From the NCBI GenBank assembly GCA_963759805.1, contig CAVXAT010000001.1:32001-96000 (forward strand): a DNA stretch of 64,000 nt, read 5' to 3'. The notes beneath the pieces were generated by a model. The model did not search any database, was not told the origin of the DNA, and worked only from the letters and a program-made list of their open reading frames with translations. Source of the stretch: an uncultured bacterium (lineage in GTDB: Bacteria > Babelota > Babeliae > Babelales > RVW-14). Position numbers and translations under genes: made by a program. Shown one piece after another: positions 20,724 to 47,693 of the stretch. Within the stretch, counting starts at the first letter, position 1. Each line of letters starts with the position of its first letter.

Positions 20724-20799
20724 TCCCCGATAGCTCAGTTGGTAGAGCACACGACTGTTAATCGTTAGGTCGCAGGTTCGAGTCCTGCTCGGGGAGCCA
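20724..20799 (+). tRNA. tRNA-Asn(GTT)
   Basis: tccccga/tcgggga acceptor, anticodon loop ctGTTaa, GGTTCGAGTCC, encoded CCA. Confidence 0.97.
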
Positions 20800-20939
20800 T
20801 CTCTTACCATCTACGGAATCTAGTATCAAATTAAACGGTTTTTTGGCTTCAAAGCGCACTTTTTTACCTTCTACCCTAAGGTTCTGAAGTACCAAGCATA
20901 AAAGTTGCCTTCTTTTCTCAACTTCAGAACTTATAAATA

Positions 20940-21941
20940 ACGCCAGTTCGATAATTAAAAAAGTTCTTTAAAAAAAGCCTTTCTCGTTTAAATTGAGAAA
21001 AATGAAACCCTCAAAAAAAAAGAGAAAGGCTAAACATGTTCTTAACAACTATTTTTTGCGAAATTGATGATTTTTGCAAGCAATATGAAAAATATGTTAA
21101 AGAAAAGAGAGTAAAGAATAACACGTTAAATGCTGCAGGACGCCCACGAGGCATGACTCTAAGCGATATTCTTACGATTTGCGTATATTTTCATTATTCT
21201 GGATATCACACATTCAAAAGATATTACAAAGACCATGTTTGCAAAGAATTGAAAACAGCCTTTGGGGCTTTGGTTAGCTACACTCGCTTTACTGAGTTAA
21301 TGCATGAGGCTGCAGAGCCATTGGCATTATTTGCTGCAAGTCGCAACAGTAAAAATATGCGCGGTATTGCCTTTATTGATTCCACAAAATTGGTTGTGTG
21401 CCACAATCTTCGAATTTACTCACACAAAGTTTTTAAGGGTATTGCTCAGCGCGGAAAATCATCAATGGGCTGGTTTTATGGGTTCAAACTCCATCTTGTG
21501 ATTAATCATTTCGGTGAAATTTTGTCATTTTGGATTACCCCAGGAAATACTGATGACCGTAACGAATCAGTTATTTCTAAAGTTACAAAAAATCTTTGGG
21601 GTTGGCTTTTTGGCGATCGTGGTTATATATCACAACCTCTTTTTGAAAAACTTTTTAGGCGTGGTCTCAAGCTTATAACAAAGCTTAAAAAGGGTATGAA
21701 AAACAAGCTCATGATCTTTTTTGAAAAACTTTTTCTAAAAAAACGAAACATCATTGAATCTGTTAACAATATCCTGAAAAATACCTTTAAAATCGAACAT
21801 ACTAGACATAGATGTGTTAAAAATTTTTTCACGAATGTTTTTGCTGCAATTTCAGCCTATTCTTTTCATCAACACAAACCTGCGATAGGTGTGGGGTTTT
21901 TTGCTGAAATTCCAAGCCTTAACTAATTATCGAACTGGCGT
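20940..21941 (+). mobile_element. IS982-family insertion sequence, copy 1 (1002 bp)
   Basis: 18-bp perfect TIR acgccagttcgataatta / taattatcgaactggcgt; TSD taaata (20934-20939, 21942-21947). Confidence 0.93.
21036..21926 (+). CDS. IS982-family DDE transposase
   Basis: IDST, GWFYGFKLHL, GDRGY, R..IESV motifs. Confidence 0.92.
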   Translation: MFLTTIFCEIDDFCKQYEKYVKEKRVKNNTLNAAGRPRGMTLSDILTICVYFHYSGYHTFKRYYKDHVCKELKTAFGALVSYTRFTELMHEAAEPLALFAASRNSKNMRGIAFIDSTKLVVCHNLRIYSHKVFKGIAQRGKSSMGWFYGFKLHLVINHFGEILSFWITPGNTDDRNESVISKVTKNLWGWLFGDRGYISQPLFEKLFRRGLKLITKLKKGMKNKLMIFFEKLFLKKRNIIESVNNILKNTFKIEHTRHRCVKNFFTNVFAAISAYSFHQHKPAIGVGFFAEIPSLN

Positions 21942-23459
21942 TAAATAAGTCATAAGCGCGGTTTGTTAGATCCAGTACATATTTTGACGTAATATAGTAG
22001 TTGTCGTCTGTCTCTTGCAACATCCCTAGTTGGGACTCCAAATCTGCTATTTCTTCACGGAACCCCTGGTCATATTTGTCATACTCGTTCTCAGTAATTC
22101 TCCCTTTGAGTTTATCCAAATATAGGTTGCTTCTCATTTTTGTTATGGTTTTATGCTTCTGAGTTAGCTCTTCGAAGCTTTTGGCCTGGAAATCTGCTTT
22201 GTCATTTTGTGCAGTGTTAATGGCGTTTATTGTTTGGAGTAATATCTCCTCAGGGATTTGCATCTGCTTAAAAATCTGTCCCAGCTGCTCAGTAATTGCC
22301 TCTTCTCGCAGCCATTGTGCGTCATGCTTGCCGTTATATTGCGTGCAGTGGTAATAAACCAAGCCCTTCTGTTTTTCAGGCGTCATTGACAGACCACAGT
22401 GCCCGCAACGAAATATTCCCCGATAAATGTATGGCTTGCCCGCGTACTTAAATCTTTTTTTATTAAAGCCTGATATGACTTGTTGGACCTGGTCAAAAAG
22501 CGTTTTGGTAATAATTGGGGCGTAGCGATGAGGATACAGTTTGTTTTTACAGACCATAAAACCGTAATAAAATGGATCGTTTAGAATTTTACCAAGAAAG
22601 CCTTTGCGCCATTTAATTCCGTACTCTTCATTCAATTTTTCGCATAGTAAGCCCATCGAAAATCCGCCTGTGGCATACAGCTCAAATGCCTTTTGAACAA
22701 TCTGCGAAGCATTCTCATCGACAACAATATCTTTTTTGCCATCCAGCTTAGTAATGTTCTTATAACCAAATGGAGCTCTACTTGGCCACTCGCCGCTGCG
22801 TAATTTTTGTTCTATGGCTCTTTTCACATTATCACTGATAGCATCTGAGTAATATTTTGATAGCCCAAGGCTCATGCTGAACTGAAATTTTTCAGCAGCA
22901 GAAATTTGGCTGTTTATTCTTTGCCCATCAGAGGCAAAGTGTAATTCGATTTCATCACATAAAGCCTTTTCGTAGAGTAAATGAACTCTTTTGTCAAAAA
23001 TGCTTCTGGATAAGCGATCTACTTTGTCAAAACAGACGAAAACTTTTTCATTTTGCTTGATAACAAAATCTATGATGCTATCAAATTCATCTCTCTGGGT
23101 TTTATAAGCGCTTTCATCAAAACTAAATTCTTTAACTATTTCAAAGTTTTTGTTCTGGCAATATCTTTTTAACCGCTCGATTTGGGCTGGAAGCGAGTTG
23201 CCAGCCTCTCTTTGCTCTTCTGTGCTAACGCGCGCAATGATTATGGCTTTCATTTGTTTTTTGCTCCTTTAAAGATTTTGAAAATTAGTTTCTAAATTAT
23301 TTAATATTTATGGTTTTTAAGCAACATTTTTTGTGGATAGGGCCTCAAGTGTGAAATAAAACACGTAAAAACGGTGCCCCTTGACAAAGTATATTTTTTA
23401 TAATAAATTTCAAATAGATATATTTAATTTATATTTGATTCAAAAAATAGGAGGTTATT

Positions 23460-24884
23460 ATGAAAAGAATAGTTCATATTTTTTTGATTTTGCCATTCTT
23501 GTTAGTGTTGTTACAGTTTAATCTTTGTGCAATGGAAGTTCCAAAAGAGGAACAAAAATATGAACACACAAGTGGGCATATTAATTCAACGTTAGATGCA
23601 TGCATTGATTCTTTTGTAAAAAAAGGAATATTTAATGGCATTGTCATGGTTATTAAAGATGACAACATCTTGATTCATAAGGGTTATGGATTTTTGGATT
23701 GTAACTCAAAAAAATTGATCAGTCTTGATACGAAATTTCGGCTGGGATCTGTTTCAAAACAGTTTACAGCGCTGGCGATAATTCAGCTTTTTGAACAAAA
23801 TAAGTTGAATATACAAGATGATATCAAATTGTATATACCTGAATTTCCAGTAGATGGAGTTAAAATTCATAACTTATTAACCCATACAAGTGGTTTGCCA
23901 TTATATTGGAAAATTTCCGGTGAGGACAGAAGTCGAGTTTATAGTAGAGATGAGGCTGTAAAAATTATTTGTAATGGGGTTGGTGAGATTGGATTATTTT
24001 TTAACCCAGGTACTCAGTTTAGGTATTCAGCATCAAATTATGTTTTGTTAGCCGCTATTGTTGAGAGAATTTCAGGAATTTCGTTTGAAAATTACATTAA
24101 ACAAAATATTTTTGATCGAATAAAAACTACTGGAATTGGATGTTGTTGCAAGTGTTGCAAGCCTGTTGATGGTTTGGCTACTGGGCACATATTAAAGGAT
24201 GAAAATCTATTGACTGTTATTCCTCTTGATGCCCTTGCTGTCCCTGGTACTGGAAGTTTATATGCAACTGCAGGAGATCTTTACAAATGGGCTAACGCGT
24301 TAAAAACACCAGGCATTTTGCTTGGCCCTAAAGGGCTTTCCCTGATGTTTGAGCCGTATGTTAAAACTACCCCAGATTTTATAAAAGATAGTGAATATGC
24401 TTATGGTTGGTTCATAACACTTATCCATGGGCATAAGTGTATAGGTCATTTTGGTAAAGTTATGGGCTTTCGGTCTGGCATTTTTAGATATGTTGATGAT
24501 AATACTGTTATAATTATTTTGAGCAATTTTGAACATGCACAGGTAGAACCTCTCAATACATCTTTGGCTGCGATTATATTTGGTTTTAAACCAGAATTAC
24601 CTCAAGTCATCAAACCAGTCGAAATAGATAGCTCAATGTTTTCTTTGTATGAAGGATTGTATGGTTGCAATGGGGAACAACTGTCTATATTCATGGATAG
24701 ATTAACTGGGGATATATATACTCAAATTATTGGACACTCCAGGCAAAAATTACTTTCTCAATCGAGTTCTGCATTTGTCCTTGAGCGATATCCGATAAAG
24801 TTTGATTTTATGAAAAATCATGAAGGTTGTTACTATATAAATATTGAAAAAAATGGCAAAATAAGTACCTGGACTAAAATTTAG
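23460..24884 (+). CDS. Secreted serine hydrolase, beta-lactamase class C/PBP fold
   Basis: Signal peptide, SVSK (SxxK), LLTHTSG, F.PGTQFRYS, GHFG. Confidence 0.85.
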   Translation: MKRIVHIFLILPFLLVLLQFNLCAMEVPKEEQKYEHTSGHINSTLDACIDSFVKKGIFNGIVMVIKDDNILIHKGYGFLDCNSKKLISLDTKFRLGSVSKQFTALAIIQLFEQNKLNIQDDIKLYIPEFPVDGVKIHNLLTHTSGLPLYWKISGEDRSRVYSRDEAVKIICNGVGEIGLFFNPGTQFRYSASNYVLLAAIVERISGISFENYIKQNIFDRIKTTGIGCCCKCCKPVDGLATGHILKDENLLTVIPLDALAVPGTGSLYATAGDLYKWANALKTPGILLGPKGLSLMFEPYVKTTPDFIKDSEYAYGWFITLIHGHKCIGHFGKVMGFRSGIFRYVDDNTVIIILSNFEHAQVEPLNTSLAAIIFGFKPELPQVIKPVEIDSSMFSLYEGLYGCNGEQLSIFMDRLTGDIYTQIIGHSRQKLLSQSSSAFVLERYPIKFDFMKNHEGCYYINIEKNGKISTWTKI

Positions 24885-24991
24885 TTAGTAAATTTTGGTT
24901 ACCAATTTGATGTAGTTTGCAGTGGCATAAGTTGTCTGAATTTTGTATTTTTGATTTAATTATTTTTCATAAGTTTAAGAAAGTTTGACAT

Positions 24992-26056
24992 ATGATTTTT
25001 TTTGATCCACAAGTAATTCAGCATATTGAACGTCGTGTTGATGAGTACGTTCAGCCATTGGTAGCACAAAAATTATTTTCAGGAGTCTTATTTTTTGCTA
25101 ATAAGAACAGCATATTATTACGCAAGGGATACGGGAAGGCTAATTATACTAATGATTTGTCAACAATGCCTGGTACCAAATATCGATTATGTTCTGTTTC
25201 TAAGCAATTCATTGCTTTAGTGATTTTGCAATTAAATAAGCATGAAAAATTACGGCTTCAAGATCCTGTGGCGCATTATTTGCCTGAATATGTTAAGGAC
25301 AATCGAATTACTATTGAACATCTCTTAATCCATACCTCGGGAATTCAAAACTATACTAAACTTGATGCCTTTAGAACAAAGATTATGTCAGGGCCACTTC
25401 GCTTACCAGAGTTAGTTGATTTATTTAAAAATAAACCATTGGACTTTGAGCCGGGCAAAAAATTTGCCTATGGAAGTTCTGGATATGTTTTGTTGGCGGC
25501 ACTAATTGAAAAAATATCTAACCAATCATATGCTGATTACCTAAAATCAAATATTCTTAATCATTTGCACATGAATGATAGTGGAAGAAACTTTCAAGAT
25601 GTCTTGAACAAAGATAATGCTGTAGGCTACCAGATGAGTGCTGGAGTCCTCGAAGCCACATCTAAGTGGGCATCAGAAACGGCTATAGGTGTTGGTGATT
25701 TTTATTCTACTGTTGATGATTTATATAAATGGAATAAAGCCATATTTAGTGAAAAAAGTTTCGAAGCTGATTTAGTCAGAACAATGTCTACACCCTACAT
25801 ACAAGCGTCTAATTTTTTTGATAATCCAAAATATGGTTATGGGCTTTTTATATCCTCAATTCTTGGTCGAAAATGCATTGGGCATTTTGGACGGTTAGGT
25901 GGTTTTCATACGCTTTTTTTACATTTTGTTCAAGAAGATGCTTGTTTAATTATGTTGAGTAATTTTGAACACAGCCCCTTGGAAGAAATGGCAACACAGC
26001 TTTTGCCTATTTTACTAAAGCCGGTTAATGGAATGATACGCACAAAAGACGTATAA
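24992..26056 (+). CDS. Serine hydrolase, beta-lactamase class C/PBP fold
   Basis: SVSK, LLIHTSG, FEPGKKFAYG, GHFG; paralog of the upstream gene without a signal peptide. Confidence 0.85.
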   Translation: MIFFDPQVIQHIERRVDEYVQPLVAQKLFSGVLFFANKNSILLRKGYGKANYTNDLSTMPGTKYRLCSVSKQFIALVILQLNKHEKLRLQDPVAHYLPEYVKDNRITIEHLLIHTSGIQNYTKLDAFRTKIMSGPLRLPELVDLFKNKPLDFEPGKKFAYGSSGYVLLAALIEKISNQSYADYLKSNILNHLHMNDSGRNFQDVLNKDNAVGYQMSAGVLEATSKWASETAIGVGDFYSTVDDLYKWNKAIFSEKSFEADLVRTMSTPYIQASNFFDNPKYGYGLFISSILGRKCIGHFGRLGGFHTLFLHFVQEDACLIMLSNFEHSPLEEMATQLLPILLKPVNGMIRTKDV

Positions 26057-26792: not shown

Positions 26793-26858
26793 ACTGCTGC
26801 ATAAATCACTCGGGACGAGCGGCGGAGATTTACGGCCTTTGCATGAATCGAGATTTCC

Positions 26859-28016
26859 ATGATAGACACCATAGTTTTAACATTCACTAGCAACATGTAT
26901 CGCATAACAGACCCTGACAAATTTAGGCCATCTGCTCGTTGGATAGAAAATCCGTCGTTGATTAATTGCGATATTCGGTCAAAGCAAAATACAACAAAAA
27001 AAGAGCTGAGTCGTGGAATTTACAAGCCATCTCTTACGTTGTCCAATTGCATCGGCTCTAGCGGGCTGCGCGATATTATGCTCAAAGTTGAATTGTCATT
27101 GCCCAAGCTATTGTTTGGGAATAATTTTCAAGAATTGCAGTATAAAGATTTTTCGCTAATCACAAAAAAGTTGGTGGGAAAATTAGAGGCAATGGGGGTT
27201 GAGATTGACGAAGATGTACTTGCTCATGCGAATGTTTCTGCCATTCATTATGCAAAAAATATTATTCTTAAAGATGGCTCAACGCCATTTCATTACATTC
27301 AAAAGATTAAAGAATCAAATATTTCTGCAGTTCTTGATACCAATCAGACGAATTACCGCAACGACGGGCTTAGTTATAAGTGGCATTGCAATTCATATGA
27401 AGTTGTTTTCTACGATAAAATCAAAGAGCTTGAAAAGACAAAACAGAGCAGCAAAAGGACAATCGAAAAGGATGGGGCTTTGCAAATCAAGCTTTTGGAT
27501 CGGTTAACTCGCAGAAAAAAGTTGGAGATCTTGCGCATGGAGGTGAGGCTTAATAAACGGCAAAAAATCAGACAGCTGTTTGCCAAACTTGGTATTAAAT
27601 CAGATTTAACATTTCATAGCTTATTTAAGCCTGCCACGGCTAAAAAAGTTTTATTGCATTATCTTGACGAGCTTGAAAGCAAACGGCCAGCCTTACTTGA
27701 TTATAAAGACAAAGACGATGGAGCTTTGCTGGCGGCTTTGTGTTTTAATAATCCGGAACTTAGGCCCAAACAAATTTTACAGATGTTTGGTTTGAAAAAG
27801 GCACTTGAATTTATAACGCCACGAGAGTTAAGTGTTTTATTTTCACGCATTCATTCTAGGCGGTTTCAGAGGTTTATGACAGAGGTCAAGAAAGTAAAAT
27901 TGCCAAACGAGAACAATTCGTTTGGCATTATACGAGAACAGGTTGTGAAATTTAAGCCGTGCAAGATTCGTGAAGCGTCGCAATCATTTCGCAATCGTGA
28001 CGTAATCTTGTCGTAA
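26859..28016 (+). CDS. Putative phage/plasmid replication initiator (gene II/X / Rep_trans-like)
   Basis: N-terminal MIDT, SLPKLLFGNN, FYDK..E and LRMEVRL motifs resembling this family. Confidence 0.6.
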   Translation: MIDTIVLTFTSNMYRITDPDKFRPSARWIENPSLINCDIRSKQNTTKKELSRGIYKPSLTLSNCIGSSGLRDIMLKVELSLPKLLFGNNFQELQYKDFSLITKKLVGKLEAMGVEIDEDVLAHANVSAIHYAKNIILKDGSTPFHYIQKIKESNISAVLDTNQTNYRNDGLSYKWHCNSYEVVFYDKIKELEKTKQSSKRTIEKDGALQIKLLDRLTRRKKLEILRMEVRLNKRQKIRQLFAKLGIKSDLTFHSLFKPATAKKVLLHYLDELESKRPALLDYKDKDDGALLAALCFNNPELRPKQILQMFGLKKALEFITPRELSVLFSRIHSRRFQRFMTEVKKVKLPNENNSFGIIREQVVKFKPCKIREASQSFRNRDVILS

Positions 28017-28048
28017 TCCTATCAATACGCTTTAACCCTTTGTAATAA

Positions 28049-28402
28049 TTATTTCTTATTAAAGACCAGATGCGGTTCTTGTCCCAATAGTGCAAAAAGA
28101 CGTGCGATGCTGGCAATTGTCAAATTGGCAGCGCCATTTTTTATTTTGGCAATATGTGCGGGACTAACATCCAATCGTTTGACGAGCTCATTAAAACCAA
28201 TATTTTTTTCTTTCATGTAATTATTCATGGCATTTGTAATATCATTTTGTAACGACTTAAGAGCCCTTGCTTCCAACATTGCTTGTTGTTCAATTTCGGT
28301 GATTTCTGATTTAGTTAATCTTTTTTCCATTAACTTTTGAAAGCTTTTCGTTGAAAATTTCTTCGTTGTTACTATCTTCTTCTCTTTTCCTGCCTTATTC
28401 AT
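28049..28402 (-). CDS. XRE-HTH antitoxin
   Basis: HTH ELVKRLDVSPAHIAKIKNG.ANLTI; lies downstream of the RelE-like gene. Confidence 0.75.
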   Translation of the reverse strand: MNKAGKEKKIVTTKKFSTKSFQKLMEKRLTKSEITEIEQQAMLEARALKSLQNDITNAMNNYMKEKNIGFNELVKRLDVSPAHIAKIKNGAANLTIASIARLFALLGQEPHLVFNKK

Positions 28403-28436
28403 GGTAACTACTCCTTATCATTGTTCTGCGTTATTT

Positions 28437-28760
28437 TTACTGAGTTTGTGTTAACCTTGTACGTGCAATTTTAATATCATTTTGTTGGTTACTTTTATCA
28501 CCTGCATGCAGCAAAATTATGATCTTATTCTTATAAAAGCAGTAATAAATTCTAAAACCATAGTTTCTTTCGCGTAACTCAAATAGGCCTTTGCCTAGTG
28601 TTCTGCTATGTGGAAGTTTTAAATCATTACCACAAACTTCAAGCAGTTTTAGTTCTTTGGATACGGCTTTGAATTGTTCCCGCGTTAATTTTAGTAACCA
28701 ACGCTCAACCGAGCGTTTGCCTGAGTTATCAACCCAATAGTCTATAGTCCATTTTATCAT
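28437..28760 (-). CDS. RelE/ParE-superfamily (HigB/Gp49-like) toxin
   Basis: LPHSRTLGKGLFELR..GFRIYY..ILLHAGDK..Q..DI..A; toxin-before-antitoxin order. Confidence 0.85.
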   Translation of the reverse strand: MIKWTIDYWVDNSGKRSVERWLLKLTREQFKAVSKELKLLEVCGNDLKLPHSRTLGKGLFELRERNYGFRIYYCFYKNKIIILLHAGDKSNQQNDIKIARTRLTQTQ

Positions 28761-28824
28761 AATTTTACAACTCACTTTCTCATGAAAATATAAATTGAAC
28801 TTTTAATAAATAATCTTCAAAAAC

Positions 28825-28958: not shown

Positions 28959-30404
28959 ATGAAAGCCATTCTTATTGCTCGTGTGAGTACTGAAGAGCAG
29001 CGAGATGCAGGCAACTCATTGCCCGCGCAAATTGCACGTCTTGAAAGATATTGCCAGAATAAAAACTTTGATATTTTGCAGATCTATAGTTTTGATGAAA
29101 GTGCATACAAAAACGATCGCGTTGAATTTGATCGAATTATTGATCTTATTTTAAATCAGCAAGAAAAGATTGTAGTATGTTGCGACAAAGTCGATCGACT
29201 CTCACGCAATGTATTTGATAAACGGGTTTCGATACTTTATGAAAAAGCATTGTTTGACCAGATAGAATTACATTTTATATCTGATGGACAGATCATCAAT
29301 AGTAATATATCTGCGGTAGAAAAATTTCAATTCAGCATCAGTTTGGGATTGGCCAAATATTATTCAGATGCGATCAGTGATAATGTAAAACGAGCTATGG
29401 AACAGAAATTACGAAAAGGCGAGTGGCCTTCAAAAGCTCCATTTGGTTATAAAAACATCACCAAGCCGGATGGGAAAAAAGATATTGTTGTTGATGAATA
29501 TAATTCACGCATTGTTCAAAAGACATTTGAATTGTACGCAACTGGTGGCTTCTCAATGAGTTTGTTATGTGAAAAATTAAACAAAGAGCATGGTCTTAAG
29601 TGGCGAAAAGGTTTTCTTGATAAGATTTTAAATGAGTCATTTTATTACGGTGTTATGGTATGCAAATGTAGGATGTACCCTCATCGATACCCTCCAATAA
29701 TAACCCAATCACTTTTTGATCAAGTACAACAGATTATAGATGGATTTAAAAAGAAGCGATTCAAATATGCAGGCAAACAACCATATGCTTACCGCGGGTT
29801 AATACGTTGTGCTCATTGTGGATTGTCAGTAACGCCTGAAAAGCAGAAGGGCTTGGTCTATTATCATTGCACTCAGTACAATGGTAAGCATGGGGCCAAA
29901 TGGATAAGAGAGGAAGCGATCACTGAGCAACTTGGCGCAGTATTTAGAAATTTACAGATGCCTGCAGAAATTGTACACCAAATTACCCAGACTCTGAACG
30001 AAGTTCATGAAAATAAAATTGAATTTCATAATAACGAGTTCGACAAGCTCGCTAGGGAGCAAAAAAATCTGACTACCATGCTTGATAATTTATATCTTGA
30101 TAGACTTCAAAGAAAAATTTCTGAGCGTGACTATGACAAGTTTTATCAATCAATGCATGATCGAATAACTGATATTGCGATACGCCTTGACCAGTTACAG
30201 GAAGCGGAAGATGTTTATCATTTTACTGCAACGTTTGTACTTGAGGTCATAAAACGTGCGTATGAGTTATTTGTAAGTGCTGAAATTGAAGAAAAACGCC
30301 AACTAATTAAATTGATGCTATTGAATTTGAGAATAGAGGGCGAAAATCTTGTGTGGGACGTACAAAAACCGTTTGATTTGTTTTTGAATGCCACCGAAAA
30401 TTAA
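28959..30404 (+). CDS. Large serine recombinase (LSR2), close paralog of LSR1
   Basis: ARVSTEEQ, DKVDRLSR, CAHC; long identical stretches with LSR1; ends KPFDLFLNATEN* without the WL tail. Confidence 0.92.
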   Translation: MKAILIARVSTEEQRDAGNSLPAQIARLERYCQNKNFDILQIYSFDESAYKNDRVEFDRIIDLILNQQEKIVVCCDKVDRLSRNVFDKRVSILYEKALFDQIELHFISDGQIINSNISAVEKFQFSISLGLAKYYSDAISDNVKRAMEQKLRKGEWPSKAPFGYKNITKPDGKKDIVVDEYNSRIVQKTFELYATGGFSMSLLCEKLNKEHGLKWRKGFLDKILNESFYYGVMVCKCRMYPHRYPPIITQSLFDQVQQIIDGFKKKRFKYAGKQPYAYRGLIRCAHCGLSVTPEKQKGLVYYHCTQYNGKHGAKWIREEAITEQLGAVFRNLQMPAEIVHQITQTLNEVHENKIEFHNNEFDKLAREQKNLTTMLDNLYLDRLQRKISERDYDKFYQSMHDRITDIAIRLDQLQEAEDVYHFTATFVLEVIKRAYELFVSAEIEEKRQLIKLMLLNLRIEGENLVWDVQKPFDLFLNATEN

Positions 30405-34027: not shown

Positions 34028-34094
34028 GTTGTCTCCTTAAGCTTTATAGCTAACAAAATTAATTCAAAATTTATTTTCATAAAAATTTCCAATC

Positions 34095-34320: not shown

Positions 34321-34326
34321 TGTTAA

Positions 34327-37730: not shown

Positions 37731-37736
37731 TGGTTT

Positions 37737-38336
37737 CTACATAAGATCTAAAATTTGGTCTCGCCTATCTGGATACCACTCAAGCAATTCCTTTATGCAG
37801 GCTTGCTCATATTTATTTTCATACATTTGATAGAGTGCCTTCTTTGCCTCGAAGGTCGCACGTCGCATCCGCTTGGGCCTCGCATTATGCTCGATAGACC
37901 CACCCCTAATTTTGATTGAATTCTTGATGTTAACACCCATCAACAGACAGCGTTCAGATGCGATTAGGCGTTGTTTATAATATCCGAGGTTTAAACATTT
38001 TCTGCAACTAAAAAGGCCATCCTTGCAATACAACATTCGCATTCGCTGACCACACTTTGGGCAATGCAGAAAGTAGCGAAATCCGCCATAGTTACAGGTC
38101 TGTCTCTCGATTGGTATATCATATTTACCACCTACATATTCGACGCTGTACTTGTCATATAAAAGCGTAGCCTTCAACTTGTATGGCGGCATCTCAAGTG
38201 CAATTTTGTTCAGGCAGGCTTCAAATGATCCCTTGATCTTGAATAGCGAGAAAGAGTCTAGGCAGTAGTAGCGCGTGCATAACGGCTTTGGCGTATGTTT
38301 AATTTTAACCTTCCAATACCAACCCCAGTGTGTCAT
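37737..38336 (-). CDS. Hypothetical double-CxxC zinc-binding protein
   Basis: GGFRYFLHCPKC...FSCRKC.NL.Y..Q and RPKRM motifs. Confidence 0.65.
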   Translation of the reverse strand: MTHWGWYWKVKIKHTPKPLCTRYYCLDSFSLFKIKGSFEACLNKIALEMPPYKLKATLLYDKYSVEYVGGKYDIPIERQTCNYGGFRYFLHCPKCGQRMRMLYCKDGLFSCRKCLNLGYYKQRLIASERCLLMGVNIKNSIKIRGGSIEHNARPKRMRRATFEAKKALYQMYENKYEQACIKELLEWYPDRRDQILDLM

Positions 38337-38648
38337 GTTATGCCCCTCTATTTATCGAAATACACAGAGAACCTTGCCTGATCGTTAAATATTCAATGCT
38401 ATGATGTAGAAATAGGTTTATGTGTTTTAATCATATCACCCATTGGTCATAAAACATATCAAATGAACGCGTAGAATCCAACGCTTTTTCACTGCGCTAC
38501 TTGGCTTATTTTGATATTCAATTTTTAAGAATCTGTTAATCTTGAATATTCCAGGGGCAAGTCATATAAATTGTTGCAGTATACAGCAACTGAACGAAGT
38601 CCTGAATAAGTTAATAAGATATAACGGTTTAAAATTGAAAGATCGGTT

Positions 38649-40588
38649 ATGAAGGGATTTTTTATGTTTTTTGGTTTAGCTCTTTGTACATTATTGAGTG
38701 GATGTAGCCAGCCAACATCAAGATCTAGCGTGGATGCTGTTCCTCTCATTCCACGGGAAGTTCTTTTTGGAAATCCAGAAAAAGCGAACCCAAAAATTTC
38801 ACAAAATGGTAAACACTTGGCCTACTTAGCTTCGGTTGATGGTGTAATGAATGTCTGGGTGAAAACAATTGGCAAGAACGATGCCCAGACCGTAAGCAGG
38901 GACAACGATCGTGGAATTTGGATGTACTGGTGGACATACAATGATAAGTATCTTTTATATGCACAAGACAGAGGCGGTGACGAAAATTGGCATATTTATC
39001 GGGTTAATATTACAACAAACGAAACTGTTGATTTGACCCCTTTTGAGGGAGTTAAGGCAAGTGTTTGTGATACAAACAAAAAATATCCAAACACTGTTTT
39101 GATTACCATGAACAAAGAAAATTCAAAACTTTTTGATGTATATCGGTTAGCCCTCGAAACCGGCAAAATTGAATTGTTGGAAAAGAATCCAGGAAATGTT
39201 GCGTGTTGGATTGCCGATGATGATTTAGTTGTTAGGGCTGCCAAAACATTTAATGCTGATGCAGGGGCATCATTAATATTTCGTGTATCAGAAAAAGACG
39301 AATGGAAAAAATAATTAAAACCTGGAATTTTGAAGATGCAGGTCCCGTTGAAGGTGAAGGGAACATGGGAATCTTTGGGTTTTCGCATGATGGTAAAAAG
39401 TTATACCTAAAAGATTCTTCAGACTCAAATACAGTACGTTTGGTTGAATATGATTGTACTTCTGGAAACCAGACAATTTTGGCGCAAGATCCTATTTTTG
39501 ATGTTACAGGATTACTTATTAAACATAGCACAAAAATGCCTCTAGCAGTAATCATTGCAAAAGAGCGTAACACTTGGATTCCATTTGATAACAAATTTGC
39601 TCCAATTCTGCAGTCCATGCAATGTGTTGACGATGGGGTTTTGATGATAAGCAGTTCTTCAATTGATGGTCGCTATTGGGTCATTGGATTTATTCATGAC
39701 AATCAATCTACAAAATATTTTTTATTTGATACAAAAACAAATAAAACAGAGCTTCTTTTTGTGGAGCGTCCAGAGCTTAACAAGTATCAGTTGGCATCAA
39801 AGAATCCAATATCGTTTATTGCTCGCGATGGGCTTAAAATTCACGGTTATTTAACCTGTCCGCTCGGAGCTTCTCATAAAAATTTGCCACTGATCTTGCG
39901 TGTTCATGGTGGGCCATGGTGCCGTGATTCGTGGGGCCAAGATCCTATGGCACAATTGTTTGCCAATCGTGGTTATGCTTGCTTGCAAGTGAACTACCGT
40001 GGATCGATTGGGTATGGAAAAGCGTTTATGAATGCTGGCGATTGCGAATGGGGCGGCAAGATGCATGATGATTTAATTGACGCTGTAAATTGGGCGATTA
40101 CTACAGGGATTGCAGATCCTAAAAAAATTGCAATTTATGGTGGTTCATATGGTGGATATGCGGCGCTCGTTGGTGCAACCTTTACGCCAGATGTATTTTG
40201 TTGTGCTATTGATATTTGTGGCATAAGTAATCTCATCACCTGGATTAATTCATTTCCTCCATATTGGGTTTACATAAAAAAGCAATTAGGTTTACGGGTT
40301 GGCAATCCTGAAAAGGATGCTGAATATTTAAAATCTCGTTCGCCATTATTCAAAATCGACAATATCAAAATTCCAATATTGATTGCTCAGGGCGCTAATG
40401 ATCCACGTGTTAAACAGGCAGAATCAGAACAGATAGTTGATGTCATGAAGGCAAAGGGTTTGCCATATGAGTATGTGTTATTTTCTGATGAAGGGCATGG
40501 TTTTGTCAAGCCCAAAAATAATTTGAAGTTTGCTGCGATTGCGGAAAAATTTCTGGCCAAGCATCTTGGCGGCAGGTATGAAGAGTAA
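38649..40588 (+). pseudogene. S9 prolyl oligopeptidase/acylaminoacyl-peptidase lipoprotein, frameshifted
   Basis: Lipobox LLSGC and beta-propeller in ORF 38649..39314; VHGGP, GGSYGG, QGANDPRV and DEGHG in ORF 39302..40588; one extra A in the A6 run at 39307-39312 gives a single 646-aa protein. Confidence 0.8.
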
Positions 40589-40629
40589 GTTAAATAACTA
40601 GTAAATTTTAATAACATGGAAAGGTCATA

Positions 40630-41868
40630 ATGTTCTGTTTTTGTTTAAAATATACTTTTTACATTATCGCAGGTATTACTTTTTTGGTAGCTGGAATCTT
40701 TGTGTATTTGACTTGGTTTCAACCACCATTCTACTTCCCCAAGCCAACAGGCCAATATGCCGTTGGAATCAAAACTTATCATTGGATTGATGTATCGCGC
40801 CGAGAGATGTTAAATGTTGATCCAGTACATCCTAACCGAGAGCTTATGGTAAGTATCTGGTACCCAGCCCAGGGAACATTGCCAGAGAAGCCCACAAAGC
40901 CATACGTACCCTGCATCCCTTACTTCCAAAAAAATCAAAAAATAGCTTGGTTTTTGGTCAAGCATTCTCACTCTATCTATTCTTACGCCCATCCAGAAAC
41001 TTTTCTAGTAAATGATATATCACAATTTCCGGTTATCATTTTTTCTCATGGCCTTGGATGTACTCGTGATAGCAATATTGCTCAGTGCGAAGAGCTTGCA
41101 AGTAACGGCTACATTGTTGTTGGGATAAGCCATACGTATGATAGTGCTGCTGTTCAGTTCCCTGATGGCCGAATTGTTAGCCAAAATAATATACCAAAAT
41201 CGTTGGACGAAGAAATCGAAACATGGATTTATGATGTGCATTTTGTGCTTAACCAACTTGAACAGCTTGAAAGCAATAAAGATTCTATGTTTTATCGACG
41301 TTTTGATCTAAAAAATATTGGAATGTTTGGACATTCTTATGGTGGTGCAACGGCAATACAAATGTGTCGTCGTGAACCACGCATCAAGGCTGGCGTTAAT
41401 ATGGATGGGAATTTGTATGGCATAGATGGTACAAAAGCTTTTGACAAACCATGTATGTTTATGCTTGCAGCAGAGTCAGTCGAGGTATACGAGCGGGCAT
41501 GGACTCAGACCGATTTGAAAAATTTTGGAATAAAGTCTCAAGATGATGCACAAAAGGAGAAATCAACGTATTTACCTGCCATTGAACAGCTTACACACAT
41601 AAATGGACAGGATATTTATACATTTGTTGTTAAAGATTCAGGGCATTATGTTTTTTGCGATAACGCATTACTGAAAGATGTATCGCCAGTTTCGTATTTT
41701 GTGGGTGACCTTGGAACGGGATCAATTGATGGATTTCGAGCAACAGAAATTGTTAATGCGTATCTTCTAACCTTCTTCAATAAATACCTCAAGGGCCTGC
41801 CATCGGATCTGTTGGATGAAAATGATAAGAAGTATGCAGAGGTTGAAATTAAATATTGGGGAAAATAA
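40630..41868 (+). CDS. PAF-acetylhydrolase-like alpha/beta hydrolase
   Basis: PTGQYAVG, IWYP, FSHGLG, ELASNGY, GHSYGG, NMDG. Confidence 0.8.
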   Translation: MFCFCLKYTFYIIAGITFLVAGIFVYLTWFQPPFYFPKPTGQYAVGIKTYHWIDVSRREMLNVDPVHPNRELMVSIWYPAQGTLPEKPTKPYVPCIPYFQKNQKIAWFLVKHSHSIYSYAHPETFLVNDISQFPVIIFSHGLGCTRDSNIAQCEELASNGYIVVGISHTYDSAAVQFPDGRIVSQNNIPKSLDEEIETWIYDVHFVLNQLEQLESNKDSMFYRRFDLKNIGMFGHSYGGATAIQMCRREPRIKAGVNMDGNLYGIDGTKAFDKPCMFMLAAESVEVYERAWTQTDLKNFGIKSQDDAQKEKSTYLPAIEQLTHINGQDIYTFVVKDSGHYVFCDNALLKDVSPVSYFVGDLGTGSIDGFRATEIVNAYLLTFFNKYLKGLPSDLLDENDKKYAEVEIKYWGK

Positions 41869-41870
41869 AC

Positions 41871-42743
41871 ATGAAAGTTGGATTAAGCACAGTCAGCCTT
41901 TCAACGGCCATCAAATCTGGAGAAATGGATATTCTTCAAGCAATGCAATGGGTAGCGGATAACGGTGGAGAGCATATCGAGATTTGTCCCTCAAATTGTT
42001 TCACTTTAACTCAGAATAATGCGCTAATTGAATCTGTAGTAAATAAGGCAAAAGAGATTAATCTTGAAATTTCCAGTTACACGATAAAAGCAAACTTTCT
42101 TCAGGATAATAATGCTGCTTATGATGCTGAAATTGAACGCATAATTCATGAAGTTGATATTGCAAAAAAGCTTGGAGCCAGCCGAATGCGCCATGATGTT
42201 TGCAACTGGCACGTCGAAAACACCTCCGAAGAACAATTCCAAAAGGATCTTCCAAAACTCGCACATGCTTGCCGTAAAATTGCTGATTACGCAAAACAAT
42301 TCGATATTATAACCAGCGTCGAAAATCATGGACTTTACGTCCAGCATAGCCATAGAATTCGCCAATTAATAGAATCTGTCGACAGGGAAAACTTCAGAAC
42401 CACACTTGATATAGGAAACTTCATCTGCGTGGACGAAGATCCGATTTCTGCTGTAACACAAAATGCCAAGTATGCATCACATGTACATGTTAAAGATTTT
42501 TTGATAAAGCTGCACAATGCTCCATATCCTGGGGAAGGTTGGATAAGAACCCCAGCCGGAAATCACTGGCGTGGTACCATAATTGGTCATGGCAACATAA
42601 ATGTTGCTGAATGTCTTTCAATAATCAAGAAATCAGGTTATGACGGATATATTGCAGTCGAATTTGAGGGAATTGAAGACTGCATAGTTGGTTCACGTAT
42701 TGGAATGGCAAATGCAAAAAGGTTCTGGGTAGATGCAAAATAA
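41871..42743 (+). CDS. Sugar phosphate isomerase/epimerase (xylose-isomerase-like TIM barrel)
   Basis: VENHG, LDIGN, HVHVKD, GYDGYIAVEFEG. Confidence 0.85.
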   Translation: MKVGLSTVSLSTAIKSGEMDILQAMQWVADNGGEHIEICPSNCFTLTQNNALIESVVNKAKEINLEISSYTIKANFLQDNNAAYDAEIERIIHEVDIAKKLGASRMRHDVCNWHVENTSEEQFQKDLPKLAHACRKIADYAKQFDIITSVENHGLYVQHSHRIRQLIESVDRENFRTTLDIGNFICVDEDPISAVTQNAKYASHVHVKDFLIKLHNAPYPGEGWIRTPAGNHWRGTIIGHGNINVAECLSIIKKSGYDGYIAVEFEGIEDCIVGSRIGMANAKRFWVDAK

Positions 42744-42789
42744 GGTCTGATAGCACTTATCATCATTGTATTAATAAACATGAAAATAA

Positions 42790-43935
42790 TTAGCGCTGCA
42801 ATAATAAGTTTTCCATAAACAAGTTAGGTTGATTTTCCAAAAATGCATGCGCTATTTCTTTATAAGCCTCAGCTTGCCACACATGATTACGTCCATGCAG
42901 ATTGTTTGTAAATATGGCAAATTTAGGCGTTTTAACAGCATTCCACAATGTTGCAAATTCTTCTGCATTACAATAACAATCATTTAAGCTTTGAAAAAAT
43001 AATATTGGACAGGTCAATTTTGAAAGATAATAAGATAATGGCAAAGTATGTAAATCCACCCATGCAAGCCATTCAGTTAATTTAAAACCACAAGCCTGAG
43101 TGATTTCCTGATCGGTTAGGCAAGGTAATGGAGAATGTGGAGTTTCGACAGTGCAAAGAAGCGATGGATCTTTAATAATACTCTTTACTACGCGTTCAAG
43201 TGAAGGCCAGCTTCCATCAAAAATCAATTTATCAAAAAGATTTGGCCTTTTTGCGGTTGCCCTGGCAAAAACATAAGATGAGAAGCAAAGACCTAAACCA
43301 AACACATTTCGGTAATTCTTTTGTTGCTTGCACGCATCAATAGCTGCTATGACATCATCTTCTTCCAATGTTCCTATTCCTGACACATTGAAGTCTATTC
43401 CTCGAATTTCCCAAGAGAGTAGCCCCATCCATTTCCAAGGAAGCAAATAAGACACGTCAATACTATGATCAGATCCTATCCCTCGATAATCAAATAATAA
43501 CAAATCGTATGTTGGAAAAATTTTAACAAATGGCAACATGCGTTCACGTTGAACTGGAAATCCAGTACCCAAAACTAAAAGTGTATCGCTTTTGCGATCA
43601 AAAAAAGTACAATGAATTGCTGGCGATGTTTCACATGAAACCGTAAGCGGTTCTCCACTAAGTTCATTCAATTTTTGAAATGCTTTTCGTGGATTTTTTA
43701 TAAAAACAGGATTAAAGCAGTCCGGATCACTACTTTTTAAAGTTTTATTGCATTCATATGCTAATTTTAAAAACGAAAAGTCCAAGGTAAGGCAGCTTTG
43801 CTCATCCTGAATTTCGGATTTAAGAATAAGTTCCTTGCCTAGCAAGTCTTCTGATTGCGGCTTGCCTACCTGCATTGGGTAGCAAATGTCTGCAAATCCT
43901 AACAACAAAATTATCAAAAACCAATTTCTTTTCAT
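42790..43935 (-). CDS. Secreted alpha/beta hydrolase-fold protein
   Basis: FDYRGIG, GLCFS at the nucleophile elbow, ND.YC, HGRNH. Confidence 0.65.
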   Translation of the reverse strand: MKRNWFLIILLLGFADICYPMQVGKPQSEDLLGKELILKSEIQDEQSCLTLDFSFLKLAYECNKTLKSSDPDCFNPVFIKNPRKAFQKLNELSGEPLTVSCETSPAIHCTFFDRKSDTLLVLGTGFPVQRERMLPFVKIFPTYDLLLFDYRGIGSDHSIDVSYLLPWKWMGLLSWEIRGIDFNVSGIGTLEEDDVIAAIDACKQQKNYRNVFGLGLCFSSYVFARATAKRPNLFDKLIFDGSWPSLERVVKSIIKDPSLLCTVETPHSPLPCLTDQEITQACGFKLTEWLAWVDLHTLPLSYYLSKLTCPILFFQSLNDCYCNAEEFATLWNAVKTPKFAIFTNNLHGRNHVWQAEAYKEIAHAFLENQPNLFMENLLLQR

Positions 43936-44178: not shown

Positions 44179-44297
44179 AGTTTTAGGCCGTAAATTGTAG
44201 ACTGATGTCTTCTCGATTAATCGCTGGCAGTAAAGCTAAATCTTGTTTCATCCGCTTCCAATTAAAAGTTCGAAGTGGGACCATTTGCTGGAGCCAT
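44179..44297. repeat. att-like arm plus core (junction B/C)
   Basis: 44256-44297 matches 47652-47693 at 38/42 nt; 44179-44274 aligns without gaps to 46525-46620. Confidence 0.8.
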
Positions 44298-44681
44298 TCT
44301 TTGGCAAAGCTGCGTCTGGCATGGGGATTCCAATCATTCTGGTTTTTGTAACAAATTGTCTAGAAATTCTCATTAGTAATTTTCTTATTATTCTCAAGTA
44401 CATTATACAGTGAAATGAAGAACTTCAATGTAGGAATGAATTATGTAACGTTAGCAGTATCATTAGGTAATGCCGATGCACAAGCACTATTAAATGCTCA
44501 AGCAAAATCTATGAAGATAAACGCTGAGAGTATAGCCAAAGGGCTATCCATGCGTTTTACAGTTACGGGTAATGACTAGCAACCCAATGATTTTGAAACG
44601 GCCATTCAAAAAGGAATGGCCTACAATTATAGTGACCCCCATTGTCAAGACAAATTTTTAACTTATATTTCAGAATTTTTA

Positions 44682-45602
44682 TCAGGCCATTTGTATCCCC
44701 ATTGATTTATTTTGTTGAACGATGATTTTGCTATTACATACAAAAGCCAATGATTCGAAAGTAAAATCAGATTGGTCTACTGCAATGATAGCTCCATAGT
44801 AAACTTCATCTGGTTTTTTATATTCGAGTGATTGGTGAAAGCGTTCTCTATTATAAAAGTTGATATAGTTTTTTATAATTAATCGCGTCTCAGCAATGTT
44901 TTCAAGAACATAAAAACACAGTGCTTCATATTTAATAGTTCGCCAGAATCGTTCAATAATGATGTTGTCTGCCCATCGACCTATTCCATCCATACTAATT
45001 TTGATACCTTCTTTTTCTAAACGAGCAACCCATCTTTCACTTGTAAACTGGCACCCTTGATCACTATTTAAAATCTCAGGCTTACCGAGTACGAGAGCCA
45101 TTTCCAATGCTTCAAGACAAACGTCTGTATCGAGATATGGTGACAATGCCCATCCCATAATCTTGCGACTAAAAACATCGATAAGACAAACCAAATAAAC
45201 AAACCCACCTCTTATTTTTACGTATGTGATATCTGTTTTCCAGACTTGGTTTGGGCGGCAAACTCGTAATCCTCTTAAAAGATATTTGTACACCTTGTGT
45301 TCCTTGTTTGGAATGCTAGTTTTTTTATAAGGGGCAACTGCACAAAGACCTGTCAACGTCATTAGCCGCTGTGTTCTTTTAATGTTGTGGTTAAAGCTTT
45401 TTTCGATAAGAACTTCGTGTATTTTTCGATATCCATAAAATGGATGTCTCTCATATTCGTTGCGTATCTCATCCATAATCACCTCGTCTTGGTTGTTGGC
45501 CTTCTTTGGCTTGTAATAAAGGCTACTTCGATTTATACCGAGCAGATCGCATTTTCTGGACAAGTTCAATTTGTTGTTGTGCTCAATCCATTGCTTGCGC
45601 AC
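44682..45602 (-). CDS. IS3 transposase OrfB (DDE)
   Basis: YGYRK, NQVWKTDITY, IDVFSR, NSDQGCQFTS, DNIIIERFW. Confidence 0.92.
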   Translation of the reverse strand: MRKQWIEHNNKLNLSRKCDLLGINRSSLYYKPKKANNQDEVIMDEIRNEYERHPFYGYRKIHEVLIEKSFNHNIKRTQRLMTLTGLCAVAPYKKTSIPNKEHKVYKYLLRGLRVCRPNQVWKTDITYVKIRGGFVYLVCLIDVFSRKIMGWALSPYLDTDVCLEALEMALVLGKPEILNSDQGCQFTSERWVARLEKEGIKISMDGIGRWADNIIIERFWRTIKYEALCFYVLENIAETRLIIKNYINFYNRERFHQSLEYKKPDEVYYGAIIAVDQSDFTFESLAFVCNSKIIVQQNKSMGIQMA

Positions 45603-45610
45603 TTGGATAT

Positions 45611-45889
45611 CTAGCGACTGAGCACTTGTACTAAAAAATTGCGCTCTTCCTTTACTTGTTCAAGGTCTGCCAAAATCTTGTCATATGTTTCTTCTTTTTT
45701 AACTTTTCTTTTGTCTGCAAAAAGTTCGTTGCCATGCTCTTCTAGGTGTTGCTTCCATGCATATGCTTGGCATGTTGAAATATTAAATTCTCTACAGATG
45801 GTATCAACTGATTTGTCGGCCTTTATCATAGCTAAAGCCACCTTAAGTTTAAGCTTGTCATCATGACTTTTTTTCGTGTCATCACTCAT
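45611..45889 (-). CDS. IS3 OrfA (HTH), joined to OrfB by a -1 frameshift
   Basis: KLKVAL...YAWK HTH; T-TTT-TTA slippery site at 45638-45632; OrfB lies in the -1 frame and is open through the site. Confidence 0.8.
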   Translation of the reverse strand: MSDDTKKSHDDKLKLKVALAMIKADKSVDTICREFNISTCQAYAWKQHLEEHGNELFADKRKVKKEETYDKILADLEQVKEERNFLVQVLSR

Positions 45890-45990
45890 GAGAATGCCTT
45901 TCTTGTAAAGCAAATTTTTAGATTTAACATTCTCATGCTAATTCATTATTATTGTCGTTGTACACAGTTTATCCATTTGCGTTTATTGCA

Positions 45991-46266
45991 TTAAAGCGCC
46001 CGCAATAATGACTCACGTTCTACAATAAGCTTGCCTATAATCACATGAAACTTTTCAACATCTAAACTTTTTTTTGCAGCCATTTTTTCACTCGAAAAAA
46101 CTTCAATGCCTCGATCTTCAAGCCGTTTTTTCCATGCATAAATTTGACTTGTCGCTAATGCAAATTCTTGGCATAATTCAGCTATTGGCCTATCAGCCTT
46201 TATAGCTGCCAATGCAACTTTTAGTTTAAATTTGTTGCTGTGGGTTCTGCTTACTTTGTTACTCAT
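45991..46266 (-). CDS. Second IS3 OrfA-like HTH protein
   Basis: FKLKVALAAIK...IYAWKK...IGKLIVER. Confidence 0.75.
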   Translation of the reverse strand: MSNKVSRTHSNKFKLKVALAAIKADRPIAELCQEFALATSQIYAWKKRLEDRGIEVFSSEKMAAKKSLDVEKFHVIIGKLIVERESLLRAL

Positions 46267-46524
46267 TTAATGCCCCCCGGGCTCATTGTTATAACTAATA
46301 TTTTTAAAGTACTTATTTTCTCAAGTTGCACTGTCTAGTTTTATGGGGTCAGTATAAATCTCAAATAAAAGGTCCTTTATTTTTCAACAATACCTCAGAA
46401 AACTTTTTCTGGGGTATTGTGTTGTTGAGCTTCTTATCTAAGTTGTCGTTGATTAATTTTCAATCTATACCACAAAATTATCAATCCAACCCAAGAATCG
46501 TTTATTCTTGCCCATCCTGATGTA

Positions 46525-46620
46525 AGTTTTAAGCCAAGATTTGTAGGCGGCTGTCTTCTCGATTAATCATTGGCAATAAAACTAAATCTTGTTTCATTCT
46601 TTTCTAATTAAAAGTTCGAA
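46525..46620. repeat. Degenerate copy of the att-arm/integrase-tail sequence
   Basis: Ungapped 96-bp similarity to 44179-44274; lacks the GGAGCCAT core. Confidence 0.75.
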
Positions 46621-46650
46621 TGTACAAAATTTATTATACCAGATTTTACG

Positions 46651-47445
46651 TTATTTATTTTTCGATAGATCAAGGCTCTTGAACACATAATCCCAAATTT
46701 TATCATTACCTGTCCACACAATTTCTGTAGGAGGCGTGTAATAAAAATTTAAAACATTTTTTAGATTCCATGGACTACTGCATTCAATTCCCTCATCGAT
46801 AGCAATCAATGTGTATTTTGTTGTTTTAAAAAACTTTTCCATCATTAAGCAAAAGCTTTGTGCTTGTTTTTTTGTTATATTTTTCCTAAAAAAATAAATA
46901 TGTTTTTTAGCTTGTAATGCAGAATAAAAACGTGCTATTCTTCGATCATATTTTTCTTTTACTTCAGCAAATTCATCTACAATATTTTTTTCTTTGTCAA
47001 AATCATGAACGAATTCTAATGCAAAATTTTTATTGCTTACAATATGGGTTGATCCACTAGAATCTACAATTTGTAATGCATCTATTTTTAAAAAATCTTT
47101 AAATTTATTTTCTATCAAATTAATAACAAGGTCAAAATCATATGATTTCATCCAATCAAAAGGGAAAAAACCATTATTAAGGCCTGTATGTTGAATCTGA
47201 TGAGCAACTTCACAATTTTGACCAAGACTTATCAAAATGAATTTATTTGGAAAAATATCTTTTTTATCAGTTAGGGTTCTTAAATTATTCTGATTTTCAA
47301 GCTTAAGATATAAAAGTTTTTGCTCGTTTAAAGATTGGTCTTGAGATAAATTTTGAACATTATCTCCATATAATGAAAAGTTAACCAAGATGATTAAAAA
47401 CATAAATTTGAAGTTAACCAACTCCAATGGTTCCCATTTCTTCAT
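46651..47445 (-). CDS. DUF1796-like putative papain-like cysteine peptidase
   Basis: ISLG.NC, PFDW, F.HDF, KY.RRI.RF; start after AGGAG. Confidence 0.7.
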   Translation of the reverse strand: MKKWEPLELVNFKFMFLIILVNFSLYGDNVQNLSQDQSLNEQKLLYLKLENQNNLRTLTDKKDIFPNKFILISLGQNCEVAHQIQHTGLNNGFFPFDWMKSYDFDLVINLIENKFKDFLKIDALQIVDSSGSTHIVSNKNFALEFVHDFDKEKNIVDEFAEVKEKYDRRIARFYSALQAKKHIYFFRKNITKKQAQSFCLMMEKFFKTTKYTLIAIDEGIECSSPWNLKNVLNFYYTPPTEIVWTGNDKIWDYVFKSLDLSKNK

Positions 47446-47651
47446 ACCGACTCTCCTTCTAAAATGGGTTGTGAATAAATTATTGAACCCCAATGCATTT
47501 ATGAATAAATACTCAATGCTTTAATGAATTGTTAGTAATCATATAATTTTTCAATTATAATTTGCAACTTCAACAGATATTTAATTGTGTAATACCGTTG
47601 TTATCGATAATTTGAGTTAGTGTAAATGTAGGAATATTATTTTGTAGATTT

Positions 47652-47693
47652 TTCCAATTAAAAGTTCGAAGTGGGGCCATGTTGTGGAGCCAT
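47652..47693. repeat. Putative outermost attR of the tRNA-Asn island
   Basis: ttccaattaaaagttcgaagtggggccatgttgtGGAGCCAT, followed directly by a REP of the type that follows the other tRNAs. Confidence 0.75.

Follow-up and report, generated by a model that had tools for sequence, protein, structure and literature searches.

Large serine integrases that read through their own attachment core into tRNA genes, and the C-terminal tails they appear to exchange

We analysed a 64,000-nt stretch of the genome of an uncultured bacterium of the Babelota (contig CAVXAT010000001.1, positions 32,001 to 96,000; hereafter the window), in which three tandem elements, A, B and C, lie 3' of a tRNA-Asn gene and are bordered by four copies of a 7-bp attachment (att) core, GGAGCCA. 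The minus strand of every core reads TGG CTC C, and the frames of two large serine integrases (large serine recombinases, LSR), LSR1 and LSR3, both cross the core at the TGG codon. An earlier note on this DNA had described these two crossings and proposed that, with the core inside the integrase genes, integration would exchange their C-terminal tails; it had also suggested comparing the terminal W-codon frame of homologues with tRNA 3' ends. The present study reveals that for integrases targeting tRNA ends, crossing their own core is a family-wide design. The frame is kept at 119 of 122 such ends and the long tails fall into protein families, which bears out that proposal. The sequences and coordinates quoted in the note were all found in the window, and both crossings stand; its integrase set lacked a third member, LSR2 (28959-30404).

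The 266 loci surveyed reduce to 184 distinct integrase ends, of which 122 have a called tRNA or tmRNA gene on the opposite strand within 100 nt; one extra end was dropped for an unmatched T-loop. All but three of the 122 (L023, L040 and L206) are open and in frame across the tRNA or tmRNA 3' end. Near-duplicates and kin stay in this and similar counts, which are not counts of independent events, and about nine junction positions in the register survey lie two codons off, leaving the frame unaffected. Eighteen target types are represented, with tRNA-Asn (37), tRNA-Asp (17) and tRNA-Glu-TTC (14) foremost and tmRNA accounting for six, in hosts ranging over Babeliales, Chlamydiae, Patescibacteria, Chloroflexota, Acidobacteriota and Proteobacteria. 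The window's own host is likely a member of the Babeliales, the label borne by the best named match (71%). The tRNA-derived tail is 3 to 180 amino acids (aa) long, with a median of 13. The remaining 62 ends comprise long-tail forms, truncated tRNA-like ends, contig ends and unclassified ends. In the same genome, another integrase (G000:C9 11150-12562) reads into tRNA-Arg and has a tail of 3 residues; two further integrases, both broken (G000 C10 48701-50800 and C3 19000-21200), have long tails after them. Loci L297-L299 (the two best phage-collection matches and one plasmid match) were considered as circles and rejected, being integrated tRNA-tail forms.

The features of the array that carry the argument are as follows.

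20724..20799, plus strand: tRNA-Asn(GTT), into which the elements integrate; the att core is formed by its final 7 nt, and TCGAAC at +18 on the integrase strand comes from its T-loop
20758..20799, minus strand: 13-aa tail, WLPEQDSNLRPND followed by a stop, antisense to tRNA-Asn; the stop overlaps two bases of the GTT anticodon
20793..20799, plus strand: core 1, attL of element A
20800..20939, minus strand: C-terminal piece of LSR1 (P' arm of element A), in frame, found as a tblastn match, with 96% identity to the insertion-free locus L215
21942..23253, minus strand: N-terminal part of LSR1, with resolvase, recombinase and zinc ribbon domains
28959..30404, plus strand: LSR2, an inverted second integrase of the LSR1 clade; its stop falls two codons short of the core position
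31110..31220, minus strand: 36-aa family-1 long tail, the P arm of element A; it continues the LSR3 frame and is under purifying selection
31214..31220, plus strand: core 2, the A/B junction
31110..32678, minus strand: LSR3, an intact 522-aa large serine integrase that crosses the core at 31214 and has the tail of its neighbour
44183..44296, minus strand: 37-aa long tail of family 2, P arm of element B, of the LSR3-associated type; no integrase reads into it here
44290..44296, plus strand: core 3, with TCGAAC at +23 on the integrase strand
47570..47692, minus strand: 40-aa orphan long tail of family 2
47686..47692, plus strand: core 4, attR, the right end of the array
47693..47780, plus strand: host flank, moved away from tRNA-Asn; a repeat found after tRNA 3' ends in the lineage

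Element A thus extends over 20800-31220, element B over 31221-44296 and element C over 44297-47692, and their stacking points to the arrival of C first, B second and A last. By itself the 7-mer is weak evidence, since the window holds eight copies where the genome-wide rate predicts 4.1, and context therefore decided which copies are att sites. The core together with TCGAAC at +23 occurs at only two places in the 1.5-Mb genome, 44290 and 47686. The copies at 14603, 30886, 42174 and 51983 were rejected as chance occurrences, being without integrase frame, tail family or +23 motif. Openness of the frame is by itself unremarkable, as 29% of random positions have an open 30-codon frame. The right end of the array is placed at 47692 because the DNA beyond it matches the sequence 3' of tRNA-Asn at the empty site of a relative (L124/L175), and it also matches a repeat 3' of tRNA-Glu and tRNA-Lys in the same genome.

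The same 13-aa tRNA-derived tail ends the intact homologues L013, L104, L136, P0003 and P0004. In the window, LSR1 is split by an insertion sequence; its insertion-free orthologue at L215 (91% DNA identity) keeps the frame open over the same stretch and through the core. The L215 end itself (3041-3140) resembles the tRNA over six codons before turning into a family-3 tail, which suggests a shifted crossover or later recombination. LSR2 crosses no core and has none, its nearest homologues target tRNA-Asp, and LSR2 at locus L216 has an identical end and orientation; it may have arisen by inversion or by off-target insertion.

The DNA around the core carries a signature of serine integrase sites. 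In sequence logos of the LSR1/2 clade, GTCAA stands at -8 to -4 on the integrase arm and its inverse, TTGAC, at +13 to +17 in family-1 P arms; this placement puts the site centre inside the core. From this att anatomy, the crossover would lie within the 7-bp core. Furthermore, TCGAAC stands at +18 in the 119 tRNA arms and, shifted by 5 bp, at +23 in the P arms of family 2. According to Rutherford et al. (PMC3783163), the zinc-domain motif of serine integrases is shifted by 5 bp between attB and attP. The outer motif here likewise lies 5 bp nearer in attB than in attP, also in the phage relatives, on one arm only. A whole-site palindrome score on the reconstructed att sites gave no clear centre.

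The two orphan tails of the window share the residues PLRTFNWK, as the earlier note had pointed out. As evidence of coding conservation these residues were not borne out: 14 codons compared between the orphans show 1 synonymous and 4 non-synonymous changes, and GAAC at +25 to +28 is kept in the phage relatives despite their different reading frame and residues. LRTF is best read as a DNA-binding site because the motif holds its distance across frames, and we take this part of PLRTFNWK to be mostly the predicted attP zinc-domain motif. The relatives concerned, L003 and L007, enter the tRNA in a different frame. Loci L002-L012, on viral contigs, make up a subclade encoded by phages; it runs over the tRNA end in a different frame and has helical long tails of its own.

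The long tails found upstream of integrases form three protein families that follow the integrase clades, which agree with a quick tree. The nearest upstream tail belongs to family 1 for 19 of 20 LSR1/2-clade integrases, to family 2 for 8 of 8 LSR3-clade integrases and to family 3 for 3 of 3 third-clade integrases. By this matching, the tail at 31220 is of the LSR1/2 type and the tail at 44296 of the LSR3 type. LSR3 therefore bears the tail of its neighbour, a true neighbour swap, and locus L153 is a reciprocal case; the suggestion that tandem arrays supply a neighbour's tail is thus upheld. Close homologues of LSR3 carry a tRNA tail (P0003, P0004), a family-2 tail (P0007) or a family-1 tail (P0002). 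A long tail continues the frame of 12 classified integrases, those of the window and a close relative included, and in 9 of them it is non-cognate. The family-1 profile has matches in 49 of 151 genomes of the order and, separately, in 219 protein clusters; among the 150 family-1 proteins listed, 27 have an LSR C-terminus ahead of the tail and 84 end 35-38 residues past the junction, and most of the rest look like orphan tails called as genes.

The tail at 31220 is under purifying selection. The comparison was made with L216, a close relative found via LSR2 that has the same A|B junction. Over codons 0-30 there are 9 synonymous and 2 non-synonymous differences (binomial p 1.4e-5), and past the att arm 7 and 2 (p 2.4e-4). 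The ratio of non-synonymous to synonymous change (pN/pS) against L216 is 0.053 for the tail versus 0.18 for the LSR3 body. Across 14 disjoint close family-1 pairs, pN/pS is 0.25, versus 1.07 and 1.81 in the other frames. Family-1 tails are kept as protein well beyond the ~25-bp att arm, synonymous codons varying at fixed residues, and conservation is concentrated mid-tail, not at the final residues. At 31220, the object of selection could be the hybrid LSR3 or else circles formed by A or by A+B. Coding conservation holds for family 1 and is not supported for the window's two orphans. Specifically, the 47692 tail differs from its L183 orthologue by 2 synonymous and 8 non-synonymous changes, and the two orphans pooled give 3 and 12.

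The swap at W487 of LSR3 costs no known domain because the canonical fold ends before the core; the profile match of LSR3 to the A118 integrase ends at position 471. The catalytic domain (PF00239) is present in LSR1, LSR2 and LSR3, with R8 and S10 invariant over 84 homologues. PF07508 and PF13408 were found as well, C286, C289 and C307 are invariant in the homologue alignment, and the LSR3 model has long helices of coiled-coil type at 339-386 and 392-443. This model (mean predicted local distance difference test score, pLDDT, 87) is that of a standard large serine integrase, its top fold matches being serine integrases.

What we observe is the anatomy, the frame register, the tail families and the selection on the family-1 tail; the tail swap is read from sequence and models, and the course of events would be as follows. 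The free circle would encode the integrase with a long, conserved attP tail of 30-40 residues, and the integrated copy would end in a tRNA-derived scrap or in a neighbour's tail. A new element would insert at the tRNA and displace the older ones, joining the older integrase to the newer element's tail. The long form would be all that an incoming circle can produce, and the short form all that an element integrated alone can produce. The tail, an appendage past the zinc-ribbon and coiled-coil domains, may raise attP x attB recombination or damp attL x attR recombination, and the short form, which retains all canonical domains, would have to carry out or permit excision. By analogy with the integrase of Myxococcus phage Mx8, we consider it somewhat probable that the tail favours integration on arrival and that activity is lowered or redirected afterwards. 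A stronger version, to which we give rather low credence, would make the attP tail a built-in directionality module across clades, so that the enzyme integrates with it and excises without it, no separate factor being needed. Arrays would then hand tails between unrelated integrases, and the inner LSR3 would make a circle-form enzyme from the chromosome and steer the whole array.

Several observations weigh against these readings of the tail. The W codon at the core is not universal; the streptococcal rumA integrases shift frame on integration, and another frame is used by L003 and L007. With LSR1 broken, element A may be dead here. The 9 of 12 non-cognate fusions make a clade-specific docking surface hard to sustain, and the matching of clades and tails follows from linkage on the circle, so that among non-independent kin it is not proof of co-evolution. 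Most family-1 matches are orphans with no integrase in frame, and the family-wide tail sets were picked by protein profile, which is a bias. The pooled orphan tails of the window look neutral. Family 2, with 24 tails, 6 of them containing stops, and no pair at 70% identity or above, is poorly conserved past codon 12. The LSR3 model is confident to about residue 480, and its tail (494-522) has a pLDDT under 50. In the cognate fusion L227 the tail forms two helices of moderate pLDDT (52-79). At such low to moderate confidence, no docking site is demonstrated. One comparison speaks against a neutral or DNA-site reading of the orphans: the 44296 tail and the core-less, stop-containing copy at 46642 differ by 7 synonymous and 10 non-synonymous changes (pN/pS 0.39).

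Other explanations of the swap were weighed against this evidence. The long tail might act as a C-terminal degradation signal that keeps the integrase short-lived on the circle and is removed by the tRNA tail. ClpXP recognises tags with apolar C-terminal endings, and phage BPs offers an analogy. Two apolar C-terminal residues occur in 26/131 family-1 proteins versus 70/906 background host proteins and 10/118 tRNA tails, and in 12/27 family-1 and 7/29 family-2 tails at the loci; the tRNA-Asn tail ends in D. However, about 80% of family-1 proteins have no apolar ending and none ends in AA, the fused tail at 31220 ends in KLR, conservation is central and not terminal, and kin inflate the enrichment; we thus regard such a stability switch as unlikely. 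The tail might instead be needed for folding or assembly, the short form being essentially inactive and the element locked until a neighbour's long-tailed integrase acts in trans. McMurdie et al. proposed an on/off idea of this kind for Dehalococcoides DsiB. It would fit with the tail being under strong selection in two lineages where it is joined to LSR3, and with the many orphan tails and integrase-less elements. Yet the short form keeps its canonical domains, with a high-confidence model to about residue 480, and most of the related integrases occur singly, with intact frames and a tRNA tail, and would need an exit route, so that a complete lock seems improbable to us.

Finally, control might operate at the RNA level, the mRNA end being antisense to an abundant tRNA, or the overlap might be a by-product of compact packing in which the tail is not regulatory. 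The span of 3 to 180 aa among tRNA tails, with no conserved length around their median of 13, and the little conservation of family-2 tails past the att arm agree with this, whereas the conservation of family-1 tails as protein far past the ~25-bp att arm does not; we grant it little probability. Favouring of integration by the tail, with lowered or redirected activity once it is lost, remains our preferred reading.

The elements carry the following further features.

20940..21941, plus strand: insertion sequence splitting LSR1, with a DDE transposase at 21036-21926 and terminal inverted repeats
23460..26056, plus strand: two serine-hydrolase genes of PF00144 (beta-lactamase fold), carried as cargo by element A
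26859..28016, plus strand: replication-protein-like gene (phrog_702, E 1e-4), which adjoins LSR1/2-clade integrases at many loci
28049..28775, minus strand: helix-turn-helix antitoxin-like and Gp49/DUF891 toxin-like gene pair
32963..35913, minus strand: primase and D5-like primase/helicase genes of element B
36291..43935: further genes and cargo of element B (S9 peptidase, platelet-activating factor acetylhydrolase (PAF-AH)-like hydrolase, isomerase-like TIM barrel, uncalled hydrolase-like gene)
44297..47692: element C, an integrase-less relic, with transposase genes at 44682-45913 and a DUF1796 gene at 46651-47493

The insertion sequence in LSR1, presumably of the IS982 type, is identical over 1006 nt to two further copies in the genome. 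The assignment of the PF00144 pair is a putative one, by fold, and implies no resistance role. The primase/helicase module of element B also adjoins the 71% homologue in L013, and the gene at 37737 is kept in related elements. Element C holds a second P-arm copy at 46496-46642, without a core and with stops. General Pfam and PHROGs scans gave no candidate for a separate recombination directionality factor, no search dedicated to one having been made, and no conjugation families appeared among the 30 open reading frames scanned. Promoter and terminator scans of the window stayed near shuffle levels (57 versus 45.6 and 10 versus 9.0, respectively).

Orphan tails also accumulate elsewhere. Three of family 2 (G000:C5 27562, 28762 and 30421, minus strand) are stacked 2-5 kb behind tRNA-Gln without an integrase, and five or six tandem orphan family-1 tails about 1 kb apart occur at L166 (G038:C8) and G138:C7, like a cassette array of attR scars. 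The GC-rich palindromic repeat trailing tRNA 3' ends in the lineage lies in the window at 20604-20680 and 47693-47780, and on visual inspection the arm right of 44296 (44297-44330) resembles a decayed copy. A related sequence stands in frame within another gene (G000:C1 near 287464), and seven copies at 69-nt spacing immediately precede tRNA-Val (G000:C19 8658-9110). Just past the host flank, 47836-47941 on the minus strand is a frameshifted remnant of a third-clade serine integrase end, an older decayed insertion ~80% identical to tRNA-Asn integrases in genomes of the same genus. Farther right, at 49350-52968, are genes resembling those of outer-membrane proteins (PF05150), along with two 210-aa genes that arose by recent duplication and have near-identical repeats of 300 nt.

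Serine integrases are major tools of genome engineering, and their choice of direction is under active study. A widespread family that rewrites its own C-terminus at a near-universal tRNA 3' end bears on whether a terminal module can set activity or direction without a separate factor. Proteins of this family annotated from chromosomes are usually the truncated form, so that screens may have used the wrong version. Moreover, island finders limited to tyrosine integrases or to long tRNA repeats would miss arrays with a 7-bp core.

In phage-type large serine integrases (A118/LI, SPbeta SprA, Bxb1, phiC31), the integrase gene does not contain the att sites, and a distinct directionality factor is required for excision. 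The family described here resembles them in domains, fold and the 5-bp attB/attP shift, at ~24% identity to these cultivated-phage integrases. The earlier note had named as analogues SSV1, which is said to have a split tyrosine integrase, and mycobacteriophage BPs, whose attP reportedly lies inside the repressor gene. By analogy, Mx8 appears closer than either. Its attP lies in int, and integration replaces 112 residues by 13 and lowers activity (as cited in excerpts of PMC4701971); the C-terminal swap alters site use according to the part of PMC6070905 that describes it, and Mx8 also figures in PMC4383910. As here, attP is in the integrase gene and the C-terminus is replaced on integration; the effect is experimental in Mx8, whereas ours is read from sequence. 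Mx8 has a tyrosine recombinase that loses 112 residues, in contrast to a serine integrase that loses about 36.

The note knew of no characterised LSR case, and this has to be revised, as two systems with the same anatomy are on record, neither with a biochemical test in the text consulted. In the account of Dehalococcoides DsiB by McMurdie et al. 2011 (PMC3146451), dsiB always overlaps attL, reads into ssrA or an adjacent island and may be able to function only when circular or when standing behind a neighbour. It shares with the present family an opposite-strand large serine recombinase whose 3' end lies over attL and reads antisense into the target RNA gene, tandem islands, integrase-less islands and the same regulatory proposal. 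In contrast, DsiB targets the T-loop of ssrA (tmRNA) with a 20-bp repeat, whereas the integrases studied here go to the acceptor end of a tRNA, with a core of 7 bp (six relatives target tmRNA). DsiB belongs to a six-gene module with DsiA and has divergent C-termini, where here one tail family is conserved as protein. Neither that module (with DsiA, ParB and Mom) nor a DsiA-like partner was found in our elements, whose neighbouring genes are replication-protein-like, toxin-antitoxin-like, primase and helicase genes. Streptococcal rumA integrative and conjugative elements likewise have the att site within the gene of a single serine integrase; integration alters the length and sequence of the C-terminus, and a functional difference has been proposed (Ambroset et al. 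2016, PMC4701971, in excerpt). They differ in a protein-gene target, a reciprocal 3' exchange with a change of frame, and conjugative transfer, the target here being a tRNA gene.

PMC11722253 describes the recombination directionality factor for excision by phage-type serine integrases. In 2014, according to the Islander paper (PMC4383910), no serine integrase was known to have a tRNA gene as its target. In the literature covered, which left most subscription journals outside, no paper turned up that describes serine integrases targeting tRNA genes as a family whose swapped tails are conserved; PMC12884075 likewise yielded nothing on it. As far as our searches reach, tRNA ends as targets, tail families under selection and the passing of tails between clades within arrays appear to be undescribed; the principle itself is already known, serine integrases included.

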